A DNA stretch of 64,000 bases from Candidatus Moranbacteria bacterium CG06_land_8_20_14_3_00_40_12 (GCA_002780175.1 PEVT01000048.1:8754-72753), one strand, 5' to 3'. Shown: positions 8,818 to 41,558, counted from the first letter of the stretch. Notes: a model not told the origin generated them from the letters alone. Program-made: numbers and translations.

Positions 8818-9543
8818 ATGAATTTAGAGAAAAATAAAAAAGCCATGCCTGTCGGCAGGCAGGGATTTGCTCCCGCGCCGGAATGTTCCGTATATCGGCC
8901 CTCTCTCCTTAATTCGGCGCAGCGGGTCGGCAAGGCGGCTGAATATGAAAACGGATGGTTAAAAGCCCGAAAGACAAGCGCTTTGGCAAAAGGATTCACA
9001 CTCATAGAAATGATGATTGCGATTTTCATATTTTCTCTAATGATGATCGCGGTGACGGAGATATTTTCCAGTTCCTTTGGCGGATATGGCAACGCCCGCA
9101 ATATCCAAAAAGATTTGGAAGACGCCCAATTTGTGATGGGTCAGATAGCTAAAACTTTGCGAACCAGCAGCATCGTGAATATTGGTGGAAGTTCTGAAAT
9201 AACAGTCTATGATTATTCTCAAAATAAATGCGTTGCTTATCAATTTGTATCCGGAGAAATCAGGACTGACACTACGGCTGATGATTCCGTGCCGTCCACC
9301 AGCGATCCCGTTGACTGGTGTTTTGCGAATTTCTCTCCGGATTTTTCCGCTTATAATAAGATGGCGGCTTTTTTCGTGGATGGCCGGTTTAATTCAATCA
9401 AATCGGACAACACTCCCGGAAGTGAAATATTGGGCAAGGTCACCATTTCAATGAAAATATGTTCCAACTCCAGTTGCTCCAAAGACGAAGCCGTGATTCA
9501 AACGTCAGTTTCTTTAAGAGATTATACCAAGGCGGGAATTTAA
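8818..9543 (+). CDS. Pilin-like protein with abnormally long (~56 aa) leader containing an inserted GC-rich palindromic element
   Basis: The canonical motif AKGFTLIEMMIAIFIFSLMM sits at residue ~55. The first 9 aa (MNLEKNKKA) resemble neighbouring pilin leaders. Nt 8845-8980 are GC-rich and contain CCTGTCGGCAGGCAGG, a variant of the window-wide palindrome. Confidence 0.55.
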   Translation: MNLEKNKKAMPVGRQGFAPAPECSVYRPSLLNSAQRVGKAAEYENGWLKARKTSALAKGFTLIEMMIAIFIFSLMMIAVTEIFSSSFGGYGNARNIQKDLEDAQFVMGQIAKTLRTSSIVNIGGSSEITVYDYSQNKCVAYQFVSGEIRTDTTADDSVPSTSDPVDWCFANFSPDFSAYNKMAAFFVDGRFNSIKSDNTPGSEILGKVTISMKICSNSSCSKDEAVIQTSVSLRDYTKAGI

Positions 9544-10685: not shown

Positions 10686-12833
<2,148 letters not shown>

Positions 12834-15416: not shown

Positions 15417-15491
15417 AGCGGGGTAGAGTAATGGCAGCTCGTCTGGCTCATAACCAGGAGGTTGCAGGTTCGAATCCTGCCCCCGCAACCA
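15417..15491 (+). tRNA. tRNA-Met (CAU), initiator-like (fMet)
   Basis: A near-copy of E. coli tRNA-fMet: ...CTGGCTCATAACCAGG... T-arm GGTTCGAATCC. It ends CCCCCGCAACCA with an unpaired 1:72 position and an encoded CCA. Confidence 0.75.
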
Positions 15492-15620
15492 AGCTAAGCT
15501 TGGTTTAGGCCAGCTAAGCTGGCCAACCAAGAAACCAGGATTATTTTAGGTCAGCTAAGCTGGCCAACCAAGAAACTAAGATTATTTTAGGCCAGCTAAG
15601 CTGGCCAACCAAGAAATAAA
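15481..15620 (+). repeat. Tandem array of four hairpins (CCAAGCTAAGCTTGG, then 3x GGCCAGCTAAGCTGGCC at a 41-bp period)
   Basis: Seen directly. Three ~41-bp units (GGCCAGCTAAGCTGGCCAACCAAGAAAyyAgGATTATTTTAG). Sits between the tRNA and the GIY-YIG gene. No unique spacers. Confidence 0.6.
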
Positions 15621-15621
15621 T

Positions 15622-15894
15622 ATGTATTATGTTTATATACTGTTTAGTGAAAAAGATAAACAATTGTATATTGGCTATGCAGATGATTTAAAAGCTAGAT
15701 TTGAAAAACATAGCAAAGGATTTGTTCGCGCAACTAAATTTAGACTACCGCTGAAATTGATTTATTATGAAGCATATATAAAACAATCCGACGCTAAGCG
15801 TCGGGAAAAGTTTTTAAAAGGCGGAAAAGGTAGGGGTCAATTGAAGATTCAATTAAAAGATATTTTAGAGAAAGTGTGCTATAAAAACTTGTAA
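15622..15894 (+). CDS. Small GIY-YIG nuclease-domain protein (UPF0213/YhbQ-like)
   Basis: YYVYILFSEKDKQLYIGYADDLKARFEKH carries the GIY...YIG motifs. 90 aa. Confidence 0.75.
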   Translation: MYYVYILFSEKDKQLYIGYADDLKARFEKHSKGFVRATKFRLPLKLIYYEAYIKQSDAKRREKFLKGGKGRGQLKIQLKDILEKVCYKNL

Positions 15895-15988
15895 CGCCAA
15901 AATAGCTCAGATGGTTATCTAGCCTCGACTCGCGGAGGCGCTCGTTGACGCGAGGCAGGGAGCACGGGATTCACCCCCTCACCAAAAT

Positions 15989-16062
15989 GCCGGCGTAGCT
16001 CAGTTGGTTAGAGCGATGGACTCATAAGCCATAGGTCAGAGGTTCAAATCCTCTCGCCGGTA
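15989..16062 (+). tRNA. tRNA with CAU anticodon (elongator Met or lysidine-modified Ile2)
   Basis: GCCGGCGTAGCTCAGTTGGTTAGAGCG...CTCATAA...GGTTCAAATCC...CGCCGGTA cloverleaf. CCA is not encoded. Confidence 0.7.
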
Positions 16063-16241
16063 CGGCATTTTAGTGGAGGGGCGAGTAAGTCCGCCGACTG
16101 GCGGATCGAGAATTTTTCCCCCGTAGCGAACCGATTCTGCTACTGGGGTGAATTTCTCTCCTGGTACGAAAAAAATTAAAAATTAAAAAATCAAAATGTA
16201 AAATTTTTATTTTTGATTTTTACATTTTTCATTAATATATT

Positions 16242-16318
16242 GGACCGGTAGCTCAGTTGGTTAGAGCGTCTCCCTGTCACGGAGAAGGTCGCGAGTTCGA
16301 GTCTCGTCCGGTCCGCCT
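16242..16318 (+). tRNA. tRNA-Asp (GUC)
   Basis: GGACCGGTAGCTCAGTTGGTTAGAGC...TCTCC-CTGTCAC-GGAGA...GCGAGTTCGAGTCTCGT-CCGGTCC-G. The anticodon loop reads GTC. Confidence 0.8.
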
Positions 16319-16464
16319 TCGAATAAAAGCAATCTCTTTGGGGGTTGTTTTTTTCTTGAATAAACTCGGGCTTAATGATAATATGGAAATAGATAAAAAC
16401 GCCTGAAAACGAAGATTTTTGAAGTTTTGATGGAATTACGTAATTAAGTATGTAATAAAAATTT

Positions 16465-16641
16465 ATGGCAAAACGCCCACAAAATGAAAATAGTATTCGA
16501 AAATTAACGAAATTGGGTAAAAAAAGTCTTTGTGTCACAATTCCGATTGAGATCATCCGCGAATTCGGCTGGAGGGAACGGCAGAAGCTTGTTGTCAAAA
16601 AATTCGGAAAGAAAATTATTATTGAAGATTGGAAAAAATAA
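16465..16641 (+). CDS. Small AbrB/MazE-fold (SpoVT/AbrB-type) DNA-binding protein. Missing from the ORF track (58 aa)
   Basis: MAKRPQNENSIRKLTKLGKKSLCVTIPIEIIREFGWRERQKLVVKKFGKKIIIEDWKK. The 'SLCVTIPIEI...' stretch is a swapped-hairpin motif. It lies 15 nt upstream of hsdM. Its start codon sits inside the direct repeat that flanks the R-M island. Confidence 0.55.
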   Translation: MAKRPQNENSIRKLTKLGKKSLCVTIPIEIIREFGWRERQKLVVKKFGKKIIIEDWKK

Positions 16642-16656
16642 ATAATTTTTATAATT

Positions 16657-18195
16657 ATGGCCAATAATAAAATGGAGGGTTTTGAGAAAACTCTTTTCAA
16701 AGCGGCGGATAAATTGCGGAAAAATATTGACGCGGCGGAATATAAACATGTGGCTCTGGGCTTGATATTTCTGAAATATATTTCTGATTCTTTTGAGGAA
16801 GTTTATCTAAAATTAAAAGAGGGCAAGGGCGAGTATGAAGGCGCCGATCCGGAAGATAGTGATGAATATGCGGCCGCGCATGTTTTTTATGTTCCACTAA
16901 AAGCGCGCTGGTCATATTTATATTCCCGAGCCAAGCTGCCATCGATTGGAAATGATCTGGATGAAGCGATGGATGCGATTGAAAAAGATAATCCGCCGCT
17001 TAAAGGAATTTTGCCAAAAGCCTATGCGAAACCGAATTTAGACAAGGCGTCTTTGGGCGGGCTGATTGATCTCATTGGAAATATTGCCCTCGGAGATGAG
17101 GCGGCAAAATCCAAAGATCTGCTTGGTCATGTTTATGAGTATTTTCTGGGCGAATTTGCTAATGCCGAGGGCAAAAAGGGCGGACAATTTTATACGCCGA
17201 AATCAATCGTGAAAATTATGGTTGAAATGATTGAACCCTACAAAGGTCGAGTCTATGATCCGGCTTGCGGGTCTGGCGGAATGTTCGTGATGAGTGAAAA
17301 ATTCGTGAAAGAACACAAGGGAAGAATCGATGACATTTCCATTTATGGACAGGAATCCAATCAAACTACATACAGACTTTGCAGAATGAACTTGGCGATT
17401 CGCGGTATTGATAGTTCTCAAGTGGCATGGAATACGGAGGGATCATTTCTAAATGACGCGCATAAAGATTTGAGAGCGGATTATATTCTCGCCAACCCTC
17501 CTTTTAATGATAGTGATTGGTCGGGTGACCAATTGCGCGGAGACGCGCGCTGGAAATACGGCGTGCCGCCGACCGGTAATGCTAATTTTGCCTGGATGCA
17601 GCATATGATCCACCATCTTTCGCCCAAAGGAATTATGGCCTTGGTTTTAGCCAATGGTTCGCTTTCGTCCAACACTTCCAATGAAGGAGAAATCAGAAAA
17701 AACATCATTGAAAACGATTTGGTGGATTGTATTGTCGCGCTTCCCAAACAGCTTTTCTATAATACGGGCATCCCGGCGTGCCTTTGGTTTCTTTCCCGCA
17801 AACGATCGGGCAACGGCGATCGAAAACGAACCGGCGAAATTCTTTTTATTGATGCCAGTGAAATGGGATATTTGTCAGACCGAACACACCGAATGTTTAC
17901 GGATAATGATGTCAAAAAAATTGCCGATACTTATCACGAATGGAGAAGTAAAGAAAGCAAATATAAAAATATCAAAGGATTTTGCAATTCAGCCACGGTA
18001 AAAGATATTGAAAAACATAATTTTGTCCTCACACCCGGCCGTTATGTTGGCATTCCGGATGAAATCGATGACGGAATTCCTTTTGAGAAAAAGATGGGAA
18101 AATTGAATGAAGAATTGAAAGGGCAGATGGAAAAAGGGAAAAAGTTGAATGATGAAATAAAAAAACAGCTTTCAAAAATTGGATATGGACTCTAA
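16657..18195 (+). CDS. hsdM: Type I restriction-modification system, N6-adenine DNA methyltransferase subunit HsdM
   Basis: HsdM N-terminal domain, AdoMet motif ([10 protein letters not shown]) and catalytic NPPF ([13 protein letters not shown]). Confidence 0.9.
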
Positions 18196-19150
18196 TGTTT
18201 TAATAATATTTGATACAAATAGGATTAGGAAAACCTCTAAGGGGGAGGCCGACTACTCGGATTTTAGTTTGGGCGGTGATTATCCTGAACTTTTAAAATT
18301 TGTAAAATTAAATAATTTAGAGAAATTTATTGATTTGGCAATACCTGAAATAGTTATTGATGAGCTGGAAATGCAATCTAAAAAATCATATTTTAACGAT
18401 CTAGAGGCATTGGAAAATATGAAAACAAGACTTGCTCCCATAATGGGAATTTTTACTAAGGGGAGGATGGCCTTTGATCCCGACAATCATATTCGGAAAA
18501 ACATAGAAAAATATTTGGCAGATAAAGGGAATGTGAAAATTTTAAAAATGAAAAAAGTTGATGATATTTTGGATCATCTAAAGAAGAAGGCTTTTTTGGT
18601 AAAAAAACCTTTTAAAAACAATGGCAATGGAGGTTTTAAAGATGCAATTTTATGGGAAAATATTTTACATTCAGACATATTTTCAAAATATGAAACAATT
18701 TATTTTTTTACAGAGAATGCTAATGATTTTGAGGGTTGCGGAACTGAATTTTTTAAAAAACATGGTAAAGATTTTAAAATTGTGGTGAATTATCCTCAAC
18801 TGGAAACGTTGCTTGAAGAAAAGTATATTGATTTGATTGAAAATATATCAATTTTTAAATTTATTAAGGACGATTATTTTAAGGACTATGTGGAAAAAAG
18901 CACGAAAGATCAGCGATTGAATGAAATAAATTCTGGCAATTTTGAGGATTATAAAATAACAGATGTAGAAATTAAAGATATTTGTCATGATTTTGAAAAA
19001 ATTGACAAGCTCAGGGAAGAGGAAATGGATCTTTATAAAATAATTTCGCTAGTGAAAATAACCTTAGATAATGGTCAAAAAAAGGAAATATTAGCAACTA
19101 CAACAATAGATGAAGATAGGCAGTTTATAGATTTTGAAATTGAACAATAA
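18179..19150 (+). CDS. PIN-like domain protein (DUF4935-like) embedded between hsdM and hsdS
   Basis: N-terminus [12 protein letters not shown] matches the 'xxhhhDTNhh' opening of PIN-like/DUF4935 domains. Acidic residues appear further along ([15 protein letters not shown]). The gene overlaps the hsdM stop by 17 nt and ends 3 nt before hsdS. Confidence 0.5.
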
Positions 19151-19153
19151 TTT

Positions 19154-20356
19154 ATGAATAATTGGAAAGGAACAACTTTAGGAGAAATTTGCAAGATATT
19201 AAGTGGAAGTACGCCATCAACAAAAGACACTGGTTTCTGGGATGGAAATATATCTTGGATTACGCCGAAAGATTTATCGGGATATGATAATGTTTTTATA
19301 GAAAGAGGGGAAAGAAATATAACAGACAAGGGTTTAAAAAATTCTTCGGCACAATTATTGCCAGTAAATACAGTTTTATTTTCATCGCGAGCGCCAATTG
19401 GCTATATTGCAATAGCAAAAAGAGAATTAACTACAAATCAGGGTTTTAAAAATATTATTTGCGATGAAAAGAAAACACATTTTAAGTTTATTTATTATTG
19501 GTTAAAAAATAGAAGCGATTATATTGAAAAACTCTCTTCCGGGTCAACCTTTAGTGAAGCTTCAGCGACTTTAATGAGAAGCTTGGAAATAAATCTACCA
19601 TCTATTGAGGAACAAAAACAAATTGCAGCGATGCTGTCGAGTTTGGATGATAAGATTGAGCTTTTGCGAAAGCAGAATGAAACACTGGAAAAAATTGCGC
19701 AGGGTGTTTTCAAGGAATGGTTCGTAAATTTTAAAATTGATGGCAAAAAATTAAAACTAAAAAATGGCATTCCGGAGGAGTGGAAAGTTGGAAAAATTTA
19801 TGAAACAGGAAAAGTTGTTTGTGGAAAGACACCATCAAAAGAAAATACTGATTATTTTGGCGGAAAAATACCATTTATAAAAATTCCAGATATGCATGGT
19901 CAAATGTTTCTTTTGAAGACTATCGATAAACTTTCAAAAAATGGTGCTGATTCTCAAAAAACAAAAACTATTCCAAAAAATTCAATCTGTGTGAGTTGTA
20001 TTGCGACGGTTGGATTAGTTTCAATAACAACTGAAGATTCGCAAACCAATCAACAGATCAACTCGGTAGTTCCAAATGATGAATATTTACTTGAATATTT
20101 ATATTTTTCTTTAAAATCCATCAGTGGATTTTTAAATTCTATAGGTTCGAGTGGCACAACAACGGCAAATGTAAATACCGGAACTTTTATGAATTTGGAA
20201 ATTTTAATTCCAGCAGAAGAACATTTATTGTTATTTCATAAAAATACCGTGGCAATGTTTTCTAAAATAAAAGATAATAATTTTCAAATCCAAACCCTCT
20301 CTCGCTTGCGCGACACGCTGTTGCCGAAGTTGATGAGCGGGGAAATAACAATATGA
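19154..20356 (+). CDS. hsdS: Type I R-M specificity subunit HsdS
   Basis: Two target-recognition domains. They are separated and followed by the conserved coiled-coil repeats (LPSIEEQKQIAAMLSSLDDKIELLRKQNETLEKIAQGVFKEWF; LSRLRDTLLPKLMSGEI). Confidence 0.85.
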   Translation: MNNWKGTTLGEICKILSGSTPSTKDTGFWDGNISWITPKDLSGYDNVFIERGERNITDKGLKNSSAQLLPVNTVLFSSRAPIGYIAIAKRELTTNQGFKNIICDEKKTHFKFIYYWLKNRSDYIEKLSSGSTFSEASATLMRSLEINLPSIEEQKQIAAMLSSLDDKIELLRKQNETLEKIAQGVFKEWFVNFKIDGKKLKLKNGIPEEWKVGKIYETGKVVCGKTPSKENTDYFGGKIPFIKIPDMHGQMFLLKTIDKLSKNGADSQKTKTIPKNSICVSCIATVGLVSITTEDSQTNQQINSVVPNDEYLLEYLYFSLKSISGFLNSIGSSGTTTANVNTGTFMNLEILIPAEEHLLLFHKNTVAMFSKIKDNNFQIQTLSRLRDTLLPKLMSGEITI

Positions 20357-20982
20357 GTAATTTAGAATTTATAAAACAGACAAAAATGAAACTCTTTGGA
20401 TATGCTATAGGTGATATTATTAGAGCAACAAGGGGAAACTCTCTAATGGGATCATTTGTTCAATGTTTTTGTTTTGTGGGGTATATAGCAGAAATTGCTC
20501 GTATAATAAAGCCCGGAGAGATGGCAGGTGATAAAATTTGTTATAAAAACTTTATTGAAAAGTATTTATCGCAATATGATAGTGGAAAAGTGTATGCAAT
20601 TAGGTGCGGACTGGTTCACACTTATGGTTATGCCAATTCAATGAATGAGGCGAAGATTACGGGGTATTCTTTTCAGCATAAAAACCCAGAAAACCATAGA
20701 AGATATGAAAATAACGTGTATCATTTAAATTTGAGTAATTTTATTTTTGATATCATAAAGGCAACATATGATTTTTTTAAAGAATTGGAAAGTAAAAGTG
20801 AAGAGGATCTATTTGATTATAGACAAAGAATTAAAGCAACTCTAACAGTGAATACTGAAACGGGGCCGAGAATTTCCATGAACTATGCGGGAGTAGATAG
20901 CATTTTATCTGTTATGGACTCTAGCAATATAGAATGGAAAATGTTAGAAGATAATATTTATCAACTTTGCTTAAAGGCATAA
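20353..20982 (+). CDS. Hypothetical 209-aa protein embedded between hsdS and hsdR
   Basis: ORF with good coding bias. The ATGA start overlaps the hsdS stop. It ends 9 nt before hsdR. No recognisable domain. Confidence 0.4.
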   Translation: MSNLEFIKQTKMKLFGYAIGDIIRATRGNSLMGSFVQCFCFVGYIAEIARIIKPGEMAGDKICYKNFIEKYLSQYDSGKVYAIRCGLVHTYGYANSMNEAKITGYSFQHKNPENHRRYENNVYHLNLSNFIFDIIKATYDFFKELESKSEEDLFDYRQRIKATLTVNTETGPRISMNYAGVDSILSVMDSSNIEWKMLEDNIYQLCLKA

Positions 20983-20991
20983 TATTTTTTT

Positions 20992-23900
20992 ATGACAAAA
21001 ATCACCGAATCAAATATTGAAGAAATAGCCATTGAATTCTTGGAAGCGCAAGGCTATCAATATCTTTCACCTGAAGGGCAAGAAACGGAAAGAGAAAATT
21101 TAAGTGAGGTTGTTTTAAAAAAGCGCTTGAAAGATGCGATCAATCGGATTAATCCATACAAGCCGGAAGTTGTGCGCGAGCAAGCTTTCAAGGCAGTTTT
21201 TAATTTGGTTTCGCAGAATTTAATTGAAAGCAATGAAGAATTTCATCGGATGCTGACGGACGGAATTGACACCGAATTTTTAGCAGCGGATGGCATACGG
21301 GGAAATAAAGTTTGGCTGATTGACTTTGAGAATATCGAAAATAATGATTTCGTGGTTTGCAATCAATTTACGGTTAAGGAAAAAGAAGCGACGAAAAGAC
21401 CCGATCTTGTTTTGTTTGTGAATGGTTTGCCTTTGGTCGTGATTGAACTCAAAAATCCGGCGGATGAAAATGCGACGGTCAAAAAGGCTTTTATGCAACT
21501 CCAAAATTACAAAAATTTAATTCTGGCGCTTTTTAATTACAATGCGATTTTAGCGGCTTCGGACGGGTTGGATGCTAAAGCCGGATCGCTCACGGCCGGA
21601 TGGTCGAGATTTGCCGTTTGGAAAAATTCGGAAAATAAAAAGGAGGATAAAAAAACCGTTCCGCAATTGGAAACTTTAATAAAAGGGATGCTTCGTCCGA
21701 AAATTTTGCTTGATTTGATAAAACATTTTACCGTTTTTGAAAAAGCCAAAAAAAAAGATTCGGAGACGGGACAAGTTTTTGTGGAAACCGTGAAAAAAAT
21801 CGCGGCTTATCATCAATTTTACGCGGTGCAAAAAGCGGTTGAGTCAACGGAAAAAGCGGCGAGTGAGAATGGAGACCGGAGGTGCGGAGTAGTTTGGCAC
21901 ACGCAAGGATCCGGCAAATCATTGTCGATGGTTTTTTACGCTGGAAAGATTATTCAGAAACTGAATAATCTGACCATCTTAATAATTACGGATCGAAACG
22001 ATTTGGACGATCAGCTTTTTGATACTTTTGCGTCGTGCAAACAAATTTTGCGCCAGGACCCGGTGCAAGTTGAAAATAGAAATGATCTCAAGAAAAAATT
22101 AAAAGTTGCCGGAGGCGGAATTGTTTTTTCAACCATCCAAAAATTTATGCCCGAAGATGGAGGAGAAACTTTTGATTTATTATCTGACAGAAAAAATATA
22201 ATTGTGATCGCGGATGAAGCGCACCGGAGCCAGTATGGATTTAAGGGAAAAATTACATTTGCCGGCGGAGGCGCGCAACTCAAATACGGTTTTGCCAAAT
22301 ATGTGCGCGATGCTTTGCCAAACGCTTCTTTTATCGGATTTACCGGAACGCCAATTGAAACAACGGACAAATCCACGCCGGCGGTGTTTGGCGACTACAT
22401 CGATGTTTATGATATTCAGCAGGCAGTCAAAGATGGAGCGACCGTGCCGATTTATTATGAAAATCGGTTGGTAAAAGTGCATCTCAAAGAAGAAGATAGA
22501 AAAGAATTAGATGAAGTCGTAGATCAGATGACGGAAAAAGATGAACCGGTAGAAGCGGACAAGGCAAAAGCGAAATGGGCCAGAATTGAAGCGATTGTCG
22601 GCCAGCAGGAACGCTTGAAAGCAGTGGCGAATGATATTGTGGAACATTATGAAAAACGCAGCGAAGCGGTTGAAGGGAAAGCGATGATTGTGACGATGAG
22701 CCGCCGTATTGCCGTAGCTTTATGTAATGAAATTATAAAATTAAGACCAACATGGCAGAATCGCGCATTGGACAAAGGAACGATTAAAGTGGTAATGACA
22801 ACGACTATGACTGACCCGGCGGATTGGCAGGCGCATTGCACCACCAAAGAACAACGGCGAAAATTAGCGGACAGATTTAAGGATCCGAGTGATTCGCTTA
22901 AATTAGTGATTGTTCGGGATATGTGGCTGACCGGTTTTGACGCGCCTTGCGCGAAAGTAATGTATGTGGACAAGCTGATGCGCGGACATAATTTAATGCA
23001 AGCGATTGCCAGAGTGAATCGAGTTTATAAAGATATTAGAGGCGGTTTAATTGTTGATTATATTGGAATAGCGCGGGATTTGAAAAAAGCTCTGGCTGTT
23101 TATACGGAAAGTGGCGGGCAAGGAATTCCGACGCTAAATCTTTCTGAAGCCGCATCGACTATGCAGGAAAAATTTGAAATTATTGAGGAGATGTTTTCTG
23201 ATTTTAAATATAAAGATTATTTTTCAGCCGATATAAATCGAAAGATGCAACTCCTGCTTGAGGCGCAAGAGCATGTTCTTCAATTGCCTGATGGGAAGAA
23301 ACGATTCATTGAACACATTGAAACATTAATGCGATCTTATGCGCTGGTAGCGCCACGGCCGGAAGCAATGGCAATAAAAGAAGCGCTGGCCTTCTTTCAG
23401 GCTGTGAAAGTGCGGCTGGTTAAATTTGAATCTGCTGGCGGAAAGGGACGCGATTCGGAAGAAATTGAAACGGCGATTCGCCAGATTGTGGATAAAGCAT
23501 TAGCTTCAGAAGGCGTCATTGATATTTTCAGCGCGGCCGGAATCAAGAAACCCGATGTTTCTATTTTGTCCGAAGAATTTTTGGCCGAAGTAAGAGGAAT
23601 GGATCGCAAAAATCTGGCATTGGAACTCATGAAGAAGTTATTGAATAACGAAATTGATAGTATCAAAAGCAAGAATATAGTTTTGGGAAGAAAATTTTCA
23701 GAAATGCTGGACGATGTTTTAAAGCGCTACCAATCCAATATTTTAACTGCGGCAGAAATTATTGAAGAAATGATCGGTATGGCTCGAGAAATTCGAGGAG
23801 AAGGCGATCGAAAGAAAAAACTGGGTTTGGTAACGGATTACGAAGTGGCTTTTTATGATGCTCTGACTAACAACGCAAGCGCAAAAGAAGTTTTGAGTCA

Positions 23901-24117
23901 TGAAGTTTTGCGAGAGCTGGCTTGCGTTCTGGTAGACAAGGTAAAGGAAAATACATCTATCGATTGGACAATTAGAGAAAGCGCGCGGGCGAAATTGCGG
24001 GTAATGATTAAGCGGACATTGAATAAATTCGGTTATCCGCCTGATATGCAAAAATTGGCGACAGATTTGATTTTAAAACAAGCAGAATTATTCGCTGATG
24101 ATACTCTCAAAAATTAA
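20992..24117 (+). CDS. hsdR: Type I R-M restriction subunit HsdR (SF2 helicase/PD-(D/E)xK nuclease)
   Basis: N-terminal nuclease motif (FVNGLPLVVIELK), helicase motifs I (TQGSGKS) and II (VIADEAHRSQ), and a C-terminal HsdR domain. 1041 aa. Confidence 0.9.
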   Translation: MTKITESNIEEIAIEFLEAQGYQYLSPEGQETERENLSEVVLKKRLKDAINRINPYKPEVVREQAFKAVFNLVSQNLIESNEEFHRMLTDGIDTEFLAADGIRGNKVWLIDFENIENNDFVVCNQFTVKEKEATKRPDLVLFVNGLPLVVIELKNPADENATVKKAFMQLQNYKNLILALFNYNAILAASDGLDAKAGSLTAGWSRFAVWKNSENKKEDKKTVPQLETLIKGMLRPKILLDLIKHFTVFEKAKKKDSETGQVFVETVKKIAAYHQFYAVQKAVESTEKAASENGDRRCGVVWHTQGSGKSLSMVFYAGKIIQKLNNLTILIITDRNDLDDQLFDTFASCKQILRQDPVQVENRNDLKKKLKVAGGGIVFSTIQKFMPEDGGETFDLLSDRKNIIVIADEAHRSQYGFKGKITFAGGGAQLKYGFAKYVRDALPNASFIGFTGTPIETTDKSTPAVFGDYIDVYDIQQAVKDGATVPIYYENRLVKVHLKEEDRKELDEVVDQMTEKDEPVEADKAKAKWARIEAIVGQQERLKAVANDIVEHYEKRSEAVEGKAMIVTMSRRIAVALCNEIIKLRPTWQNRALDKGTIKVVMTTTMTDPADWQAHCTTKEQRRKLADRFKDPSDSLKLVIVRDMWLTGFDAPCAKVMYVDKLMRGHNLMQAIARVNRVYKDIRGGLIVDYIGIARDLKKALAVYTESGGQGIPTLNLSEAASTMQEKFEIIEEMFSDFKYKDYFSADINRKMQLLLEAQEHVLQLPDGKKRFIEHIETLMRSYALVAPRPEAMAIKEALAFFQAVKVRLVKFESAGGKGRDSEEIETAIRQIVDKALASEGVIDIFSAAGIKKPDVSILSEEFLAEVRGMDRKNLALELMKKLLNNEIDSIKSKNIVLGRKFSEMLDDVLKRYQSNILTAAEIIEEMIGMAREIRGEGDRKKKLGLVTDYEVAFYDALTNNASAKEVLSHEVLRELACVLVDKVKENTSIDWTIRESARAKLRVMIKRTLNKFGYPPDMQKLATDLILKQAELFADDTLKN

Positions 24118-24287
24118 TTACATACCGAATTACGTAATAAAAGCATGCGAAAAGCGTACTGCGAATACGCCCATGCGAATAAAATTTTATGGCTAAACGT
24201 GTCATTTACCCACGGCCGTATCCAGATGACATGGTAATTGGCATTTGCAAATCAAGCGATAATATGGCATTATTAAGTTAGAAAAAT

Positions 24288-24782
24288 ATGCCTTTACACG
24301 CGGAAAAATATAAACAAGTCATCCTTTATCTCTGCTCGCAGTTAGGCAAAGAAGTGCGAGGGAAGAAAAAATTGGCGAAATTGCTTTATTTCGTTGATTT
24401 TGATTTTTTTGAAAAGTATCAGAAATATTTTACCGGCGATAAATACAAGGCTTTGCCGATGGGACCGGTTCCCGTCTCTTTAAATGCGATAACAAGGGAA
24501 ATGAAAAAAGAAAAAGCATTGAAAATTGAATCAGTCAATGAACATAATGGATACAATGCAACCGAAGTTTATACCTGTCTGAAAGAACCGAAAACTGCTG
24601 TTTTTTCCAAGGAAGAAAAAGAAATGCTGGATAGGGTAATTAAGAAATATGGAAGCCTCAACGGGAAACAACTTGAAGATCTGACTCACGCGGAAGCGCC
24701 TTATTCCGGGACAAAACCAAGCGAGGAGATATTTTACGAATTGGCATTTTATCGAGGAACGGATTTTAAAAATAATGATTGA
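24288..24782 (+). CDS. Panacea-domain (DUF4065, SocA/GepA-like) putative antitoxin
   Basis: KKLAKLLYFVDFDFFEKYQKYFTGDKYKALPMGPVPVSL matches the KLQKLLYF.../GPV signature of DUF4065. Confidence 0.6.
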   Translation: MPLHAEKYKQVILYLCSQLGKEVRGKKKLAKLLYFVDFDFFEKYQKYFTGDKYKALPMGPVPVSLNAITREMKKEKALKIESVNEHNGYNATEVYTCLKEPKTAVFSKEEKEMLDRVIKKYGSLNGKQLEDLTHAEAPYSGTKPSEEIFYELAFYRGTDFKNND

Positions 24783-25137
24783 GTTTATTTACCATCCTGC
24801 ATTTGAAAAAGAAACTGCCAAATTAACGCGGCGGTTTTCTTTTTTAGATAAGGCGCTGGAGGCATTTAAAATGTTGTGCGAGTTTCAATTTCACCCTTTA
24901 AATCCTCAACAAAGAATTGCTCCCGCAAAATTGCATAGAGTCACACAAAATGATTTGTGGAGTATTTGGAAGATTGAGCTTTCCGTTCCAAATGTCAGAC
25001 CTAATCAATCTCCCAGAGTTTGGTTTGCCGTAAAGGGTTTAAATATTGCATTTTTATGTATAGCCTCGCACGTTGATAATTACAGCGATAACCAGATGAA
25101 TCAAGTGGCGACAGGAAGAGTTTCAGATATTTTCTAA
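24775..25137 (+). CDS. Candidate toxin partner of the Panacea antitoxin (RelE/HigB-like fold suspected)
   Basis: Overlaps the upstream gene by 8 nt. The core KLHRVTQNDLWSIWKIEL...RVWFAVKGLNIAFLCIASH resembles the RelE/HigB beta-core. This is tentative. Confidence 0.4.
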   Translation: MIEFIYHPAFEKETAKLTRRFSFLDKALEAFKMLCEFQFHPLNPQQRIAPAKLHRVTQNDLWSIWKIELSVPNVRPNQSPRVWFAVKGLNIAFLCIASHVDNYSDNQMNQVATGRVSDIF

Positions 25138-41398: not shown

Positions 41399-41558
41399 TT
41401 TTTAGCATAAAAATCCGTGTTAAATAAAAAATTCCTAGCTATTTCTGGGATTTTTTTGTTATTTTTCTTAGAAAGGAAAACAATCATTAAGCCTTGAAAA
41501 AAAACTGAAAGTGAAATATACTGTGATTACGTAAAGATTAGCTAAAATAACCTGAAAT

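Follow-up and report, generated by a model that had tools for sequence, protein, structure and literature searches.

We analysed a stretch of 64,000 nucleotides (nt), referred to below as the window, from Candidatus Moranbacteria bacterium CG06_land_8_20_14_3_00_40_12 (GCA_002780175.1 PEVT01000048.1:8754-72753). Positions 16465-24117 of the window hold, on the plus strand, six packed genes, in which the three genes of a type I restriction-modification (R-M) system are preceded by a small AbrB/MazE-like gene and are separated from one another by two embedded passenger genes, one encoding a protein of the PIN_12/DUF4935 family and the other a protein of 209 amino acids (aa). The genes of the operon are the following:

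16465-16641, plus strand: AbrB/MazE (SpoVT-AbrB)-like gene, 58 aa, opening the operon, with 15 nt between its end and hsdM.
16657-18195, plus strand: hsdM, 512 aa, type I N6-adenine DNA methyltransferase subunit (Pfam, NCBIfam, PADLOC).
18185-19150, plus strand: PIN_12 gene, 321 aa from the ATG at 18185, or 323 aa from the TTG at 18179.
19154-20356, plus strand: hsdS, 400 aa, specificity subunit with two target-recognition domains (Pfam, PADLOC).
20353-20982, plus strand: open reading frame (ORF) of 209 aa from an unannotated family, with the motif R84-x4-H89-x-Y91, occupying the slot between hsdS and hsdR.
20992-24117, plus strand: hsdR, 1041 aa, with a PD-(D/E)xK nuclease, an SF2 translocase and a HindI-type C-terminal domain.

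At the level of sequence, the type I R-M system is confirmed as complete, with separate genes for HsdM, HsdS and HsdR that carry the catalytic motifs. Specifically, HsdM matches the Pfam domains HsdM_N and N6_Mtase (3e-113), and its translation shows the motifs NPPF and DPACGSGG; HsdS matches Methylase_S in two stretches; and HsdR combines HSDR_N, SWI2_SNF2/ResIII, T1R_D3-like and T1RH-like_C domains, with DEAH and D...ELK nuclease motifs in its translation. The closest solved relative of HsdR is that of EcoR124I (E-value 7e-35). The C-terminal tail of HsdR (residues 956-1030) also matches the PADLOC candidate PDC-S15 (E-value 8e-7).

The preliminary description of this locus had reported the five larger genes in the order given above, with a 17-nt overlap between hsdM and the 323-aa ORF, a 3-nt gap to hsdS, a 4-nt ATGA overlap between hsdS and the 209-aa ORF, and a 9-nt gap to hsdR. 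Our ORF list and the Pfam matches agree with this order and with these junctions, but the sixth gene, the AbrB/MazE-like one, had been missed. In addition, the length of 323 aa holds for the ORF opened by the TTG at 18179, whereas gene callers, both on an identical contig and in homologous operons, start at the ATG at 18185, which gives 321 aa and an overlap with hsdM of 11 nt. A Shine-Dalgarno motif was absent ahead of all genes checked here, gatA and gyrB included. Both embedded ORFs are real genes and not chance reading frames, since they have homologues of conserved length and confident structure models (predicted local distance difference test, pLDDT, of 91.8 with a predicted template modelling score, pTM, of 0.90 for the 209-aa protein, and pLDDT of 84.0 for PIN_12).

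The first passenger had been described as PIN-like and DUF4935-like, and this assignment holds: the 323-aa ORF matches PF16289 (PIN_12, formerly DUF4935) over profile positions 1-172 of 172 with an E-value of 4.5e-11 and 43.9 bits, above the cut-off of 32. In the structure model, an N-terminal VapC-like PIN nuclease domain with the alpha/beta fold of PIN proteins is followed by a helical linker and a C-terminal five-stranded beta domain. A first search found two relatives, and a two-sequence profile found 17. In an alignment of 17 sequences, E60, D153 and E158 are invariant and D10 is present in 16 (E in the remaining one). The fourth motif, T/S-x-D/E at 176-181, offers an acidic residue in every sequence, with an ambiguous register at this fourth position. 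The alignment thus bears out the earlier expectation that the PIN N-terminus keeps its acidic catalytic residues. Because these metal-binding residues are intact, we predict that PIN_12 is most likely an active VapC-type nuclease. No member of the family has a convincing match to a PADLOC model, and the window protein matches none of the HEC or PDC models; a match to the PADLOC model Specificity_I (E-value 0.01-0.02) was set aside as chance. A tblastn search of plasmids with PIN_12 gave no match.

The genomic context of PIN_12 is uniform. In all eight independent loci examined, the gene lies inside a type I hsd operon. The window and L011, an identical copy of its operon, are counted as one of these loci; the others are listed here, with x marking a further gene:

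L010: hsdM-x-PIN_12-hsdS-AAA_15/21-hsdR.
L028 (from a Candidatus Moraniibacteriota genome): hsdM-SLFN/HATPase-PIN_12-hsdS-x-SduA_C-hsdR.
L029: hsdM-PIN_12-x-hsdS-x-hsdR, adjoining integrases and a primase.
L030: AbrB-like-hsdM-PIN_12-hsdS-x-SDH protease-hsdR.
L031: hsdM-hsdS-PIN_12-hsdR.
L032 and L033 (distant relatives, on IMG/VR contigs): hsdM-PIN_12-hsdS...

PIN_12 therefore follows hsdM and precedes hsdS, immediately or with one gene in between, in seven of the eight loci, and between hsdS and hsdR in one (L031). The 11-nt overlap with hsdM recurs in L029 and L030, and every HsdR of these operons that could be read carries the same T1RH-like_C domain. Relative to the window proteins, PIN_12 is 23-37% identical in the other operons, HsdM 54-84% and HsdR 38-65%. 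PIN_12 is also always among the most AT-rich genes of its operon, with a GC fraction of 0.25-0.33 against 0.35-0.48 for hsdM and hsdR. On these comparisons, PIN_12 is a long-standing resident of the hsd lineage. Separately, L032 carries an inverted hsdS-like fragment between hsdS and hsdR (11945-12673), which may be a phase-variable specificity switch.

Such a fixed association could also mean that PIN_12 is not a suicide effector but serves the type I enzyme as an accessory subunit, or is a nuclease that acts on DNA ends or flaps of the restriction products. A precedent for the former is PcrIIC1, a PIN-family protein that binds Cas9 and raises its DNA binding and cleavage. The persistence of the gene near hsdM across deep divergence, its stop/start overlaps and the type I context of every locus all agree with such a role, as does the lack of an adjacent antitoxin in most loci, and the extra C-terminal beta domain of the model could be an interaction surface. 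However, PIN_12 diverges far faster than HsdM and HsdR, which would be unusual for a stoichiometric subunit, and the arrangement is not rigid, since PIN_12 has shifted to the hsdS-hsdR interval in L031 and other genes have been inserted after hsdM in L010 and L028. We regard an accessory role as unlikely, and we prefer to read PIN_12 as an effector nuclease.

The second passenger belongs to a family that is sparse in sequence collections. A search of 5.8 billion clustered proteins with the 209-aa protein retrieved only 21 close relatives, and when 1.84 billion representatives were searched with a profile, 614 clusters were recovered, of which 226 reach an E-value of 1e-10 or better. A scan of 185,579 species genomes yielded one distant archaeal relative only, and the family was found neither in plasmids (tblastn) nor in viral contigs. 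The window protein has no match in Pfam, NCBIfam, PADLOC or the sequences of the PDB, and profiles of 21 and 73 members retrieved nothing usable from the family, PADLOC and PDB sequence searches; a match of the window ORF to the PADLOC model PD-T4-4_B (E-value 0.01-0.02) was set aside as chance. The profile, structure and PADLOC searches to which the preliminary description had looked for an identification thus succeeded for PIN_12, through Pfam, but placed the 209-aa protein in no family and gave neither passenger a PADLOC defence match beyond chance level.

The 209-aa protein had been called unrecognisable, but it contains an R-x4-H-x-Y motif, invariant at R and H, in a largely helical fold. 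Across 73 diverse members of the family, which share a mean column identity of 12%, R84 and H89 are the sole invariant columns. The family motif can be written as R-[CN]-x-L-[VI]-H-x-Y-G, with C at position 85 in 78% of members and N in 19%; the N variant gives the classical "RN" of HEPN domains, and H89 is followed by Y, H or F at 91 and by G92. Other conserved residues are H115 (99%), C40 (97%), D21 and D189 (93% each) and, in helix 2, D43 (79%). The model places helix 1 at 3-27, helix 2 at 31-49, an insert at 50-71, helix 3 at 77-90, a beta-hairpin and helix 4 at 127-146, with the motif at the end of helix 3. Compared at the level of secondary structure, this order agrees with the definition of HEPN domains, in which the motif ends core helix 3, an insert separates helices 2 and 3, and the core is a four-helix up-down bundle (PMC3710099).

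In a structure comparison with the model, about 20 of the top 60 matches are HEPN or HEPN-like (AbiV, HepT, Csm6, sacsin, LsoA and nucleotidyltransferase C-terminal domains), and DinB-like bundles score as high as the HEPN domains. A Foldseek search of the PDB returned nothing significant, with AbiV carrying the highest probabilities. At the sequence level, one of the 73 members matches HepT-like at a borderline E-value of 0.0087; eight weakly match the PADLOC model DzbB (best E-value 2e-4) and one weakly matches PDC-S05, and the window protein matches neither of the last two. With structural support of a moderate degree, we consider it quite likely that the 209-aa protein is HEPN-like. From its invariant residues, it would most likely be a HEPN-type, metal-independent ribonuclease that uses R84 and H89. 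A DUF4145 ORF in L031 looks degenerate, and a profile comparison of it with the 209-aa family was uninformative.

Close relatives of the 209-aa protein (47-73% identity) mostly sit directly 3' of DNA methyltransferase or specificity genes, in type I, type III-like and type II settings. With X denoting the relative of the 209-aa protein, the loci are:

L015: hsdS-X-hsdR, the only type I instance besides the window.
L001/2, L003 and L004/5: N6_N4_Mtase (mod)-X-ResIII helicase (res), type III-like by domain content.
L016: X after a methyltransferase with a TaqI_C specificity domain.
L017: X after an EcoRI-type methyltransferase.

The gap between the upstream gene and X is mostly -4 to +12 nt, with 39 nt in L017 and 112 nt in L016. 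Distant members adjoin a TIR protein (L022), BREX genes (L006/7), a CD-NTase (L008), VapC (L027) or a D5-type primase (L025), and the neighbourhoods of the remaining distant loci are uninformative. The preliminary description had held that the embedded genes should prove R-M-associated rather than housekeeping, and this stands, for PIN_12 through its eight hsd operons and for the closer 209-aa relatives through their position 3' of methyltransferase or specificity genes. The narrower idea that both genes travel inside hsd operons is correct for PIN_12 but not for the 209-aa family, members of which are likewise found in type III-like and type II contexts.

The two passengers do not travel together. 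A relative of the 209-aa protein occurs in none of the seven other PIN_12 operons, and, the identical copy L011 aside, none of the other loci of the 209-aa family that can be interpreted carries PIN_12 (L015 is too short to show it). Because of this lack of co-occurrence elsewhere, the two passengers are, as far as gene neighbourhoods tell, unrelated and independently inherited, and the earlier suggestion that they form one module does not hold. The hsdS-hsdR slot of the sister operons holds different cargo each time, some of it of a defence type: an AAA_15/21 ATPase; a gene without assignment together with a Shedu-type SduA_C nuclease; an unassigned 320-aa protein; and a small ORF together with an SDH/ClpP-like protease. 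On this evidence, the 209-aa gene is exchangeable cargo of that slot. A serine protease of the SDH type (ClpP-like) is encoded both in the slot of the PIN_12 operon L030 (5147-6055) and in L006, two genes 3' of the 209-aa relative and next to BREX (11300-12451).

In the window, PIN_12, hsdS and the 209-aa gene form an AT-rich middle block with a GC fraction of 0.28-0.33, against 0.41-0.42 for hsdM and hsdR, and the composition changes abruptly at the gene edges. In the six operons measured, PIN_12, hsdS and cargo genes range from 0.25 to 0.37, against 0.35 to 0.48 for hsdM and hsdR. Genes for HsdS are known for exchange by recombination. Since the AT-rich block of PIN_12, hsdS and cargo is flanked by the better conserved and GC-richer hsdM and hsdR, the pattern suggests a variable core between conserved arms, which recombination would exchange.

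The operon is bordered by short repeated palindromes, which, together with a repeat of the start region of its first gene, are the following:

16435-16464, no strand: upstream box, a perfect ATTACGTAAT palindrome with a half-copy, TATGTAAT, 12 base pairs (bp) on, 22 nt before the ATG of the AbrB-like gene.
24109-24138, no strand: downstream box pair, ATTACATA-CCGA-ATTACGTAAT, an inverted copy that overlaps the stop codon of hsdR.
24182-24200, no strand: direct repeat of the start region of the AbrB-like gene, AAAATTTTATGGCTAAACG against AAAATTTATGGCAAAACG at 16458-16475.

The positions 16436 and 24205, previously taken as the limits of the operon, match the repeated box and the repeated start region and not genes. 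The two boxes form a 30-nt inverted repeat, 83% complementary. Paired TTACGTAA/TACGTA palindromes, spaced by 12 bp, are found at the borders of hsd cassettes at three independent loci, namely the window, L030 (189-208, before the first gene of the operon, and 9235-9242, after hsdR) and L028 (16159-16177, after hsdR). The box motif is found three times in the window against 0.9 expected; as 7 of 100 shuffles reach three, this count is not significant alone. Copies of TTACGTAA, including those outside hsd cassettes (one of them at 41527 in the window), lie 18-55 nt 5' of a start codon, with an exception of about 150 nt in L030. Because nearly all copies lie shortly 5' of start codons, the boxes are likely promoter or operator elements of the operon. 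Transposon or Xer-type recombination ends were considered for the 30-nt inverted repeats at the cassette edges and rejected as the leading interpretation, since TTACGTAA copies, non-hsd ones included, precede start codons.

The 58-aa product of the first gene matches PF04014 (MazE_antitoxin) with an E-value of 2.7e-4 and 21.2 bits, below the cut-off of 24.7, and has a 49% identical orthologue directly 5' of hsdM in L030, itself a weak MazE_antitoxin match. The 58-aa protein is a probable DNA-binding regulator, which the boxes perhaps serve.

Altogether, we consider it moderately likely that the locus is a six-gene defence operon, in which an R-M system is joined by two independent nuclease-type backup effectors that follow a PrrC-like logic. 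As a first barrier, HsdM, HsdS and HsdR would cleave unmethylated DNA. The AbrB-like protein would probably control the operon through the paired TACGTA palindromes in front of it, and PIN_12 is predicted, from the overlap of the two genes, to be translationally coupled to hsdM. Both passengers would be produced along with the methyltransferase core and would be harmless in uninfected cells. If a phage evaded or blocked restriction, the metal-dependent PIN_12 and the metal-independent 209-aa protein would cut RNA and halt translation, and the translation stop would lead to growth arrest or abortive infection. This logic is that of PrrC in EcoprrI and of the general proposal for R-M-linked HEPN proteins. 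In this scheme we infer the nuclease activity, the RNA substrate, the trigger, the physical coupling to the R-M complex, the regulation by the AbrB-like protein and, likewise, an abortive-infection or toxin function.

The guardian coupling is the weakest step of this reading, because the 209-aa family occurs with three R-M types and persists where res has decayed, and several observations weigh against the scheme. In L001 (10624-12008), and likewise in L002, res lacks residues 67-336 of its L003 orthologue and carries a frame change, with mod and the 209-aa relative intact; in L017, the methyltransferase gene is split and the 209-aa relative is intact. Persistence beside a decayed res or a split methyltransferase gene disfavours strict masking by an intact R-M complex, and the presence of the family in three R-M types disfavours a specific contact with HsdR. 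Since the family remains intact where res is deleted, its link is to the modification/specificity module, and an intact restriction subunit is unneeded. The catalytic assignment meets difficulties as well: 72 of the 73 members have no match to the Pfam HEPN profiles even at an E-value of 5, and the type I-embedded subgroup (the window protein and P0002-P0004) has G43 in place of the helix-2 aspartate that 79% of the superfamily carries. HEPN domains often use a helix-2 aspartate near the active site, and the type I-embedded subgroup could thus be less active. Furthermore, deletion of dzbB from the Dazbog system, which consists of DzbA (DUF262) and DzbB and responds to DNA methylation, is apparently toxic, which would fit a neutraliser better than a toxin. 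As for the regulator, the AbrB-like gene is present in two of the eight PIN_12 loci (the window and L030); it is absent from L028, L029, L031, L032 and L033, and L010 ends just before hsdM. Because it is missing from these five loci, the AbrB-like gene is not an obligate partner of PIN_12.

Some of these points could instead mean that the 209-aa protein is not a ribonuclease at all. It might be a helical-bundle, metal-binding enzyme, with a metal site potentially made up of C40, H89, H115, D21 and D189. Alternatively, it might be a methyltransferase-linked regulator or adaptor, for instance one that modulates modification versus restriction, or a DzbB-like partner whose role is to restrain a sensor of DNA modification or to report on it. 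The position of the gene behind a methyltransferase or specificity gene (in close relatives), its persistence beside a deleted res, the weak DzbB matches of eight of the 73 members, and a dzbB deletion that could not be transformed would all suit this alternative. On the other hand, the sole invariant residues are an R and, five positions further on, an H, both located where a core helix ends, and the extended R-x4-H-x-Y is that of the HepT toxins (H107 and Y109 in PDB 7ae2). The residue after the R is N in 19% of members, and because of this C85 is not a conserved metal ligand. In addition, the protein shows no helix-turn-helix or other DNA-binding signature. We therefore judge a non-ribonuclease role improbable and retain the HEPN-type ribonuclease as our reading of the 209-aa protein.

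A bolder reading would make PIN_12 a true fourth component in a separate lineage of type I restriction enzymes, bound to the HsdM/HsdS core, which adds RNA or flap cutting or boosts the enzyme as PcrIIC1 does Cas9, and would make the 209-aa family a methyltransferase-linked guardian that reads type I, II and III modification modules and triggers RNA cleavage. We offer this combination as a speculation with a low likelihood of being right.

Two further alternatives fare worse. The AbrB-like protein and PIN_12 might be a split VapBC-type pair that serves chiefly for addiction or island stabilisation and not for phage defence. AbrB/SpoVT DNA-binding domains are common in VapB antitoxins, the small protein weakly matches MazE_antitoxin, and its orthologue occurs again with PIN_12 in L030. 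However, no cognate antitoxin gene lies directly upstream of PIN_12, the AbrB-like gene being separated from it by hsdM, and the five loci named above carry PIN_12 without that gene. In addition, the 58-aa protein is nearly all DNA-binding domain, without a C-terminal toxin-binding tail, and its position as the first gene behind palindromic boxes fits a transcriptional regulator such as RptR. We consider such a pair distinctly unlikely. Least probable is that PIN_12 and the 209-aa protein are the two components of a single R-M-coupled module for toxicity or abortive infection, since their shared place in one packed operon and its common AT-rich middle block is outweighed by the intervening hsdS and contradicted by the distribution of the two genes.

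The defence operon that we favour is flanked by the following features:

15417-16317: upstream cluster of tRNA-Met, a 90-aa GIY-YIG ORF (15622-15894), a second tRNA-Met and tRNA-Asp; the cassette starts about 120 nt 3' of the tRNA-Asp gene.
15491-15616: three tandem 41-nt repeats, separating the first tRNA from the GIY-YIG gene.
24182-24282: repeat copy after hsdR, opening a 30-codon ORF that also starts with MAKR.
24288-25137: a SocA/Panacea-domain antitoxin gene (164 aa, Pfam 6e-25), overlapping by 8 nt a 120-aa ORF without a family match.

The last two genes are probably a toxin-antitoxin pair directly 3' of the restriction operon. The MAKR repeat could be a remnant of the insertion site of the cassette, or a second regulated promoter for this downstream pair.

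Genes nested in R-M systems have repeatedly proved to be new immune effectors, as PrrC, TgvAB, DarTG2 and the HEC systems show. For PIN_12/DUF4935, the type I hsd operon, and almost always the position just 3' of hsdM, is the first consistent biological context, and it raises the question of a fourth component in some type I enzymes. The R-x4-H-x-Y family comprises 614 metagenome clusters with almost none in cultured genomes, and it is linked to methyltransferases of three R-M types. Both passengers are small and cloneable. The hsdS-hsdR cargo slot could be mined for more defence genes, notably in bacteria of the candidate-phyla-radiation type, whose defence is poorly known.

Among known systems, Dazbog resembles the 209-aa family in that a response to DNA methylation parallels the methyltransferase linkage of the family, in addition to the weak DzbB matches, but no DUF262 gene lies near the window gene and its product has no DzbB match. 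For the first passenger, a survey of the PIN superfamily lists DUF4935 as of unknown function, with usually monocistronic genes (Matelska et al. 2017, PMC5499597). The window protein resembles the VapC/DUF4935 cluster in its PF16289 match, VapC-like core, four acidic positions, long helical insert after strand 2 and uncharacterised C-terminal region; in contrast to the survey, the gene of this subfamily lies within a type I operon at all eight loci, and it has no adjacent VapB-type antitoxin. The principle of guilt by embedding, by which genes nested in type I R-M, BREX, DISARM and Hma systems are usually defence genes, underlies the HEC and PDC models in PADLOC 2.0 (Payne et al. 2024, bioRxiv 10.1101/2024.01.29.577857), and the HEPN protein HEC-08 and the PIN protein HEC-03B are validated examples of the ribonuclease type (bioRxiv 10.1101/2024.01.29.577857); TgvAB is similarly nested in a type I operon of Vibrio cholerae (PMC11411939). 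The same principle applies here, but neither window passenger matches a HEC or PDC model, and DUF4935/PF16289 is not mentioned in Payne et al. 2024 or its text supplements.

The arrangement of the operon, earlier thought to be without precedent, has several. In the RptR island of enteropathogenic E. coli, rptR-hsdM-hsdS-darT-darG-hsdR, DarTG2 lies between hsdS and hsdR, and TAGCTA repeats are present (PMC12255303). As in that island, a small regulator gene comes first in the window operon, behind repeated short palindromes, and a passenger separates hsdS from hsdR of a type I operon; the window differs in its AbrB/MazE-like regulator as opposed to the all-helical RptR, its TTACGTAA boxes as opposed to TAGCTA, its single HEPN-like passenger as opposed to a toxin-antitoxin pair, and its extra passenger between hsdM and hsdS. 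At least 16 clades of HEPN proteins are R-M linked (PMC3710099; Anantharaman et al. 2013). Like the R-M-linked solo HEPN proteins (AbiU2, AbiJ, ApeA, Ymh and DUF4145) and HepT with its R-x4-H-x-Y, the 209-aa family is small and largely helical, with R-x4-H closing core helix 3 and helices 2 and 3 separated by an insert; most of its members have an acidic residue in helix 2, and its genes, too, are nested in R-M operons. It differs from them in an extra beta-hairpin, a C-terminal helical extension and the conserved C40 and H115, and its fold similarity to them is weak.

The closest parallel in gene order is PrrC, whose nuclease domain is classed as HEPN (PMC3710099) and whose gene sits between hsdS and hsdR of the type IC system EcoprrI (prrA-hsdM, prrB-hsdS, prrC, prrD-hsdR). 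The 209-aa gene takes the same position in the window and in L015, and its product shares with PrrC a catalytic-type R-x4-H motif and an expected role in second-line defence. PrrC, however, is about twice as large and carries an N-terminal ABC-type NTPase, whereas the 209-aa protein has no ATPase domain by Pfam or PADLOC and no nucleotide-binding alpha/beta domain in its model layout, as would be expected of PrrC or RloC, and it shows no sequence similarity to PrrC and no match to the PADLOC model of PrrC. The family also differs in its type III-like and type II methyltransferase contexts and in its occurrence beside a deleted res, and these contexts make it unlikely that a specific type I complex masks the 209-aa protein. 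In comparison with these systems, the window operon follows a known pattern, that of backup defence genes embedded in restriction systems, and is a new example of it, in which the passengers come from two protein families that had not been connected with this pattern before. What is new is a PIN family of unknown function with a fixed place in a lineage of type I operons, and an undescribed, methyltransferase-linked R-x4-H-x-Y family.

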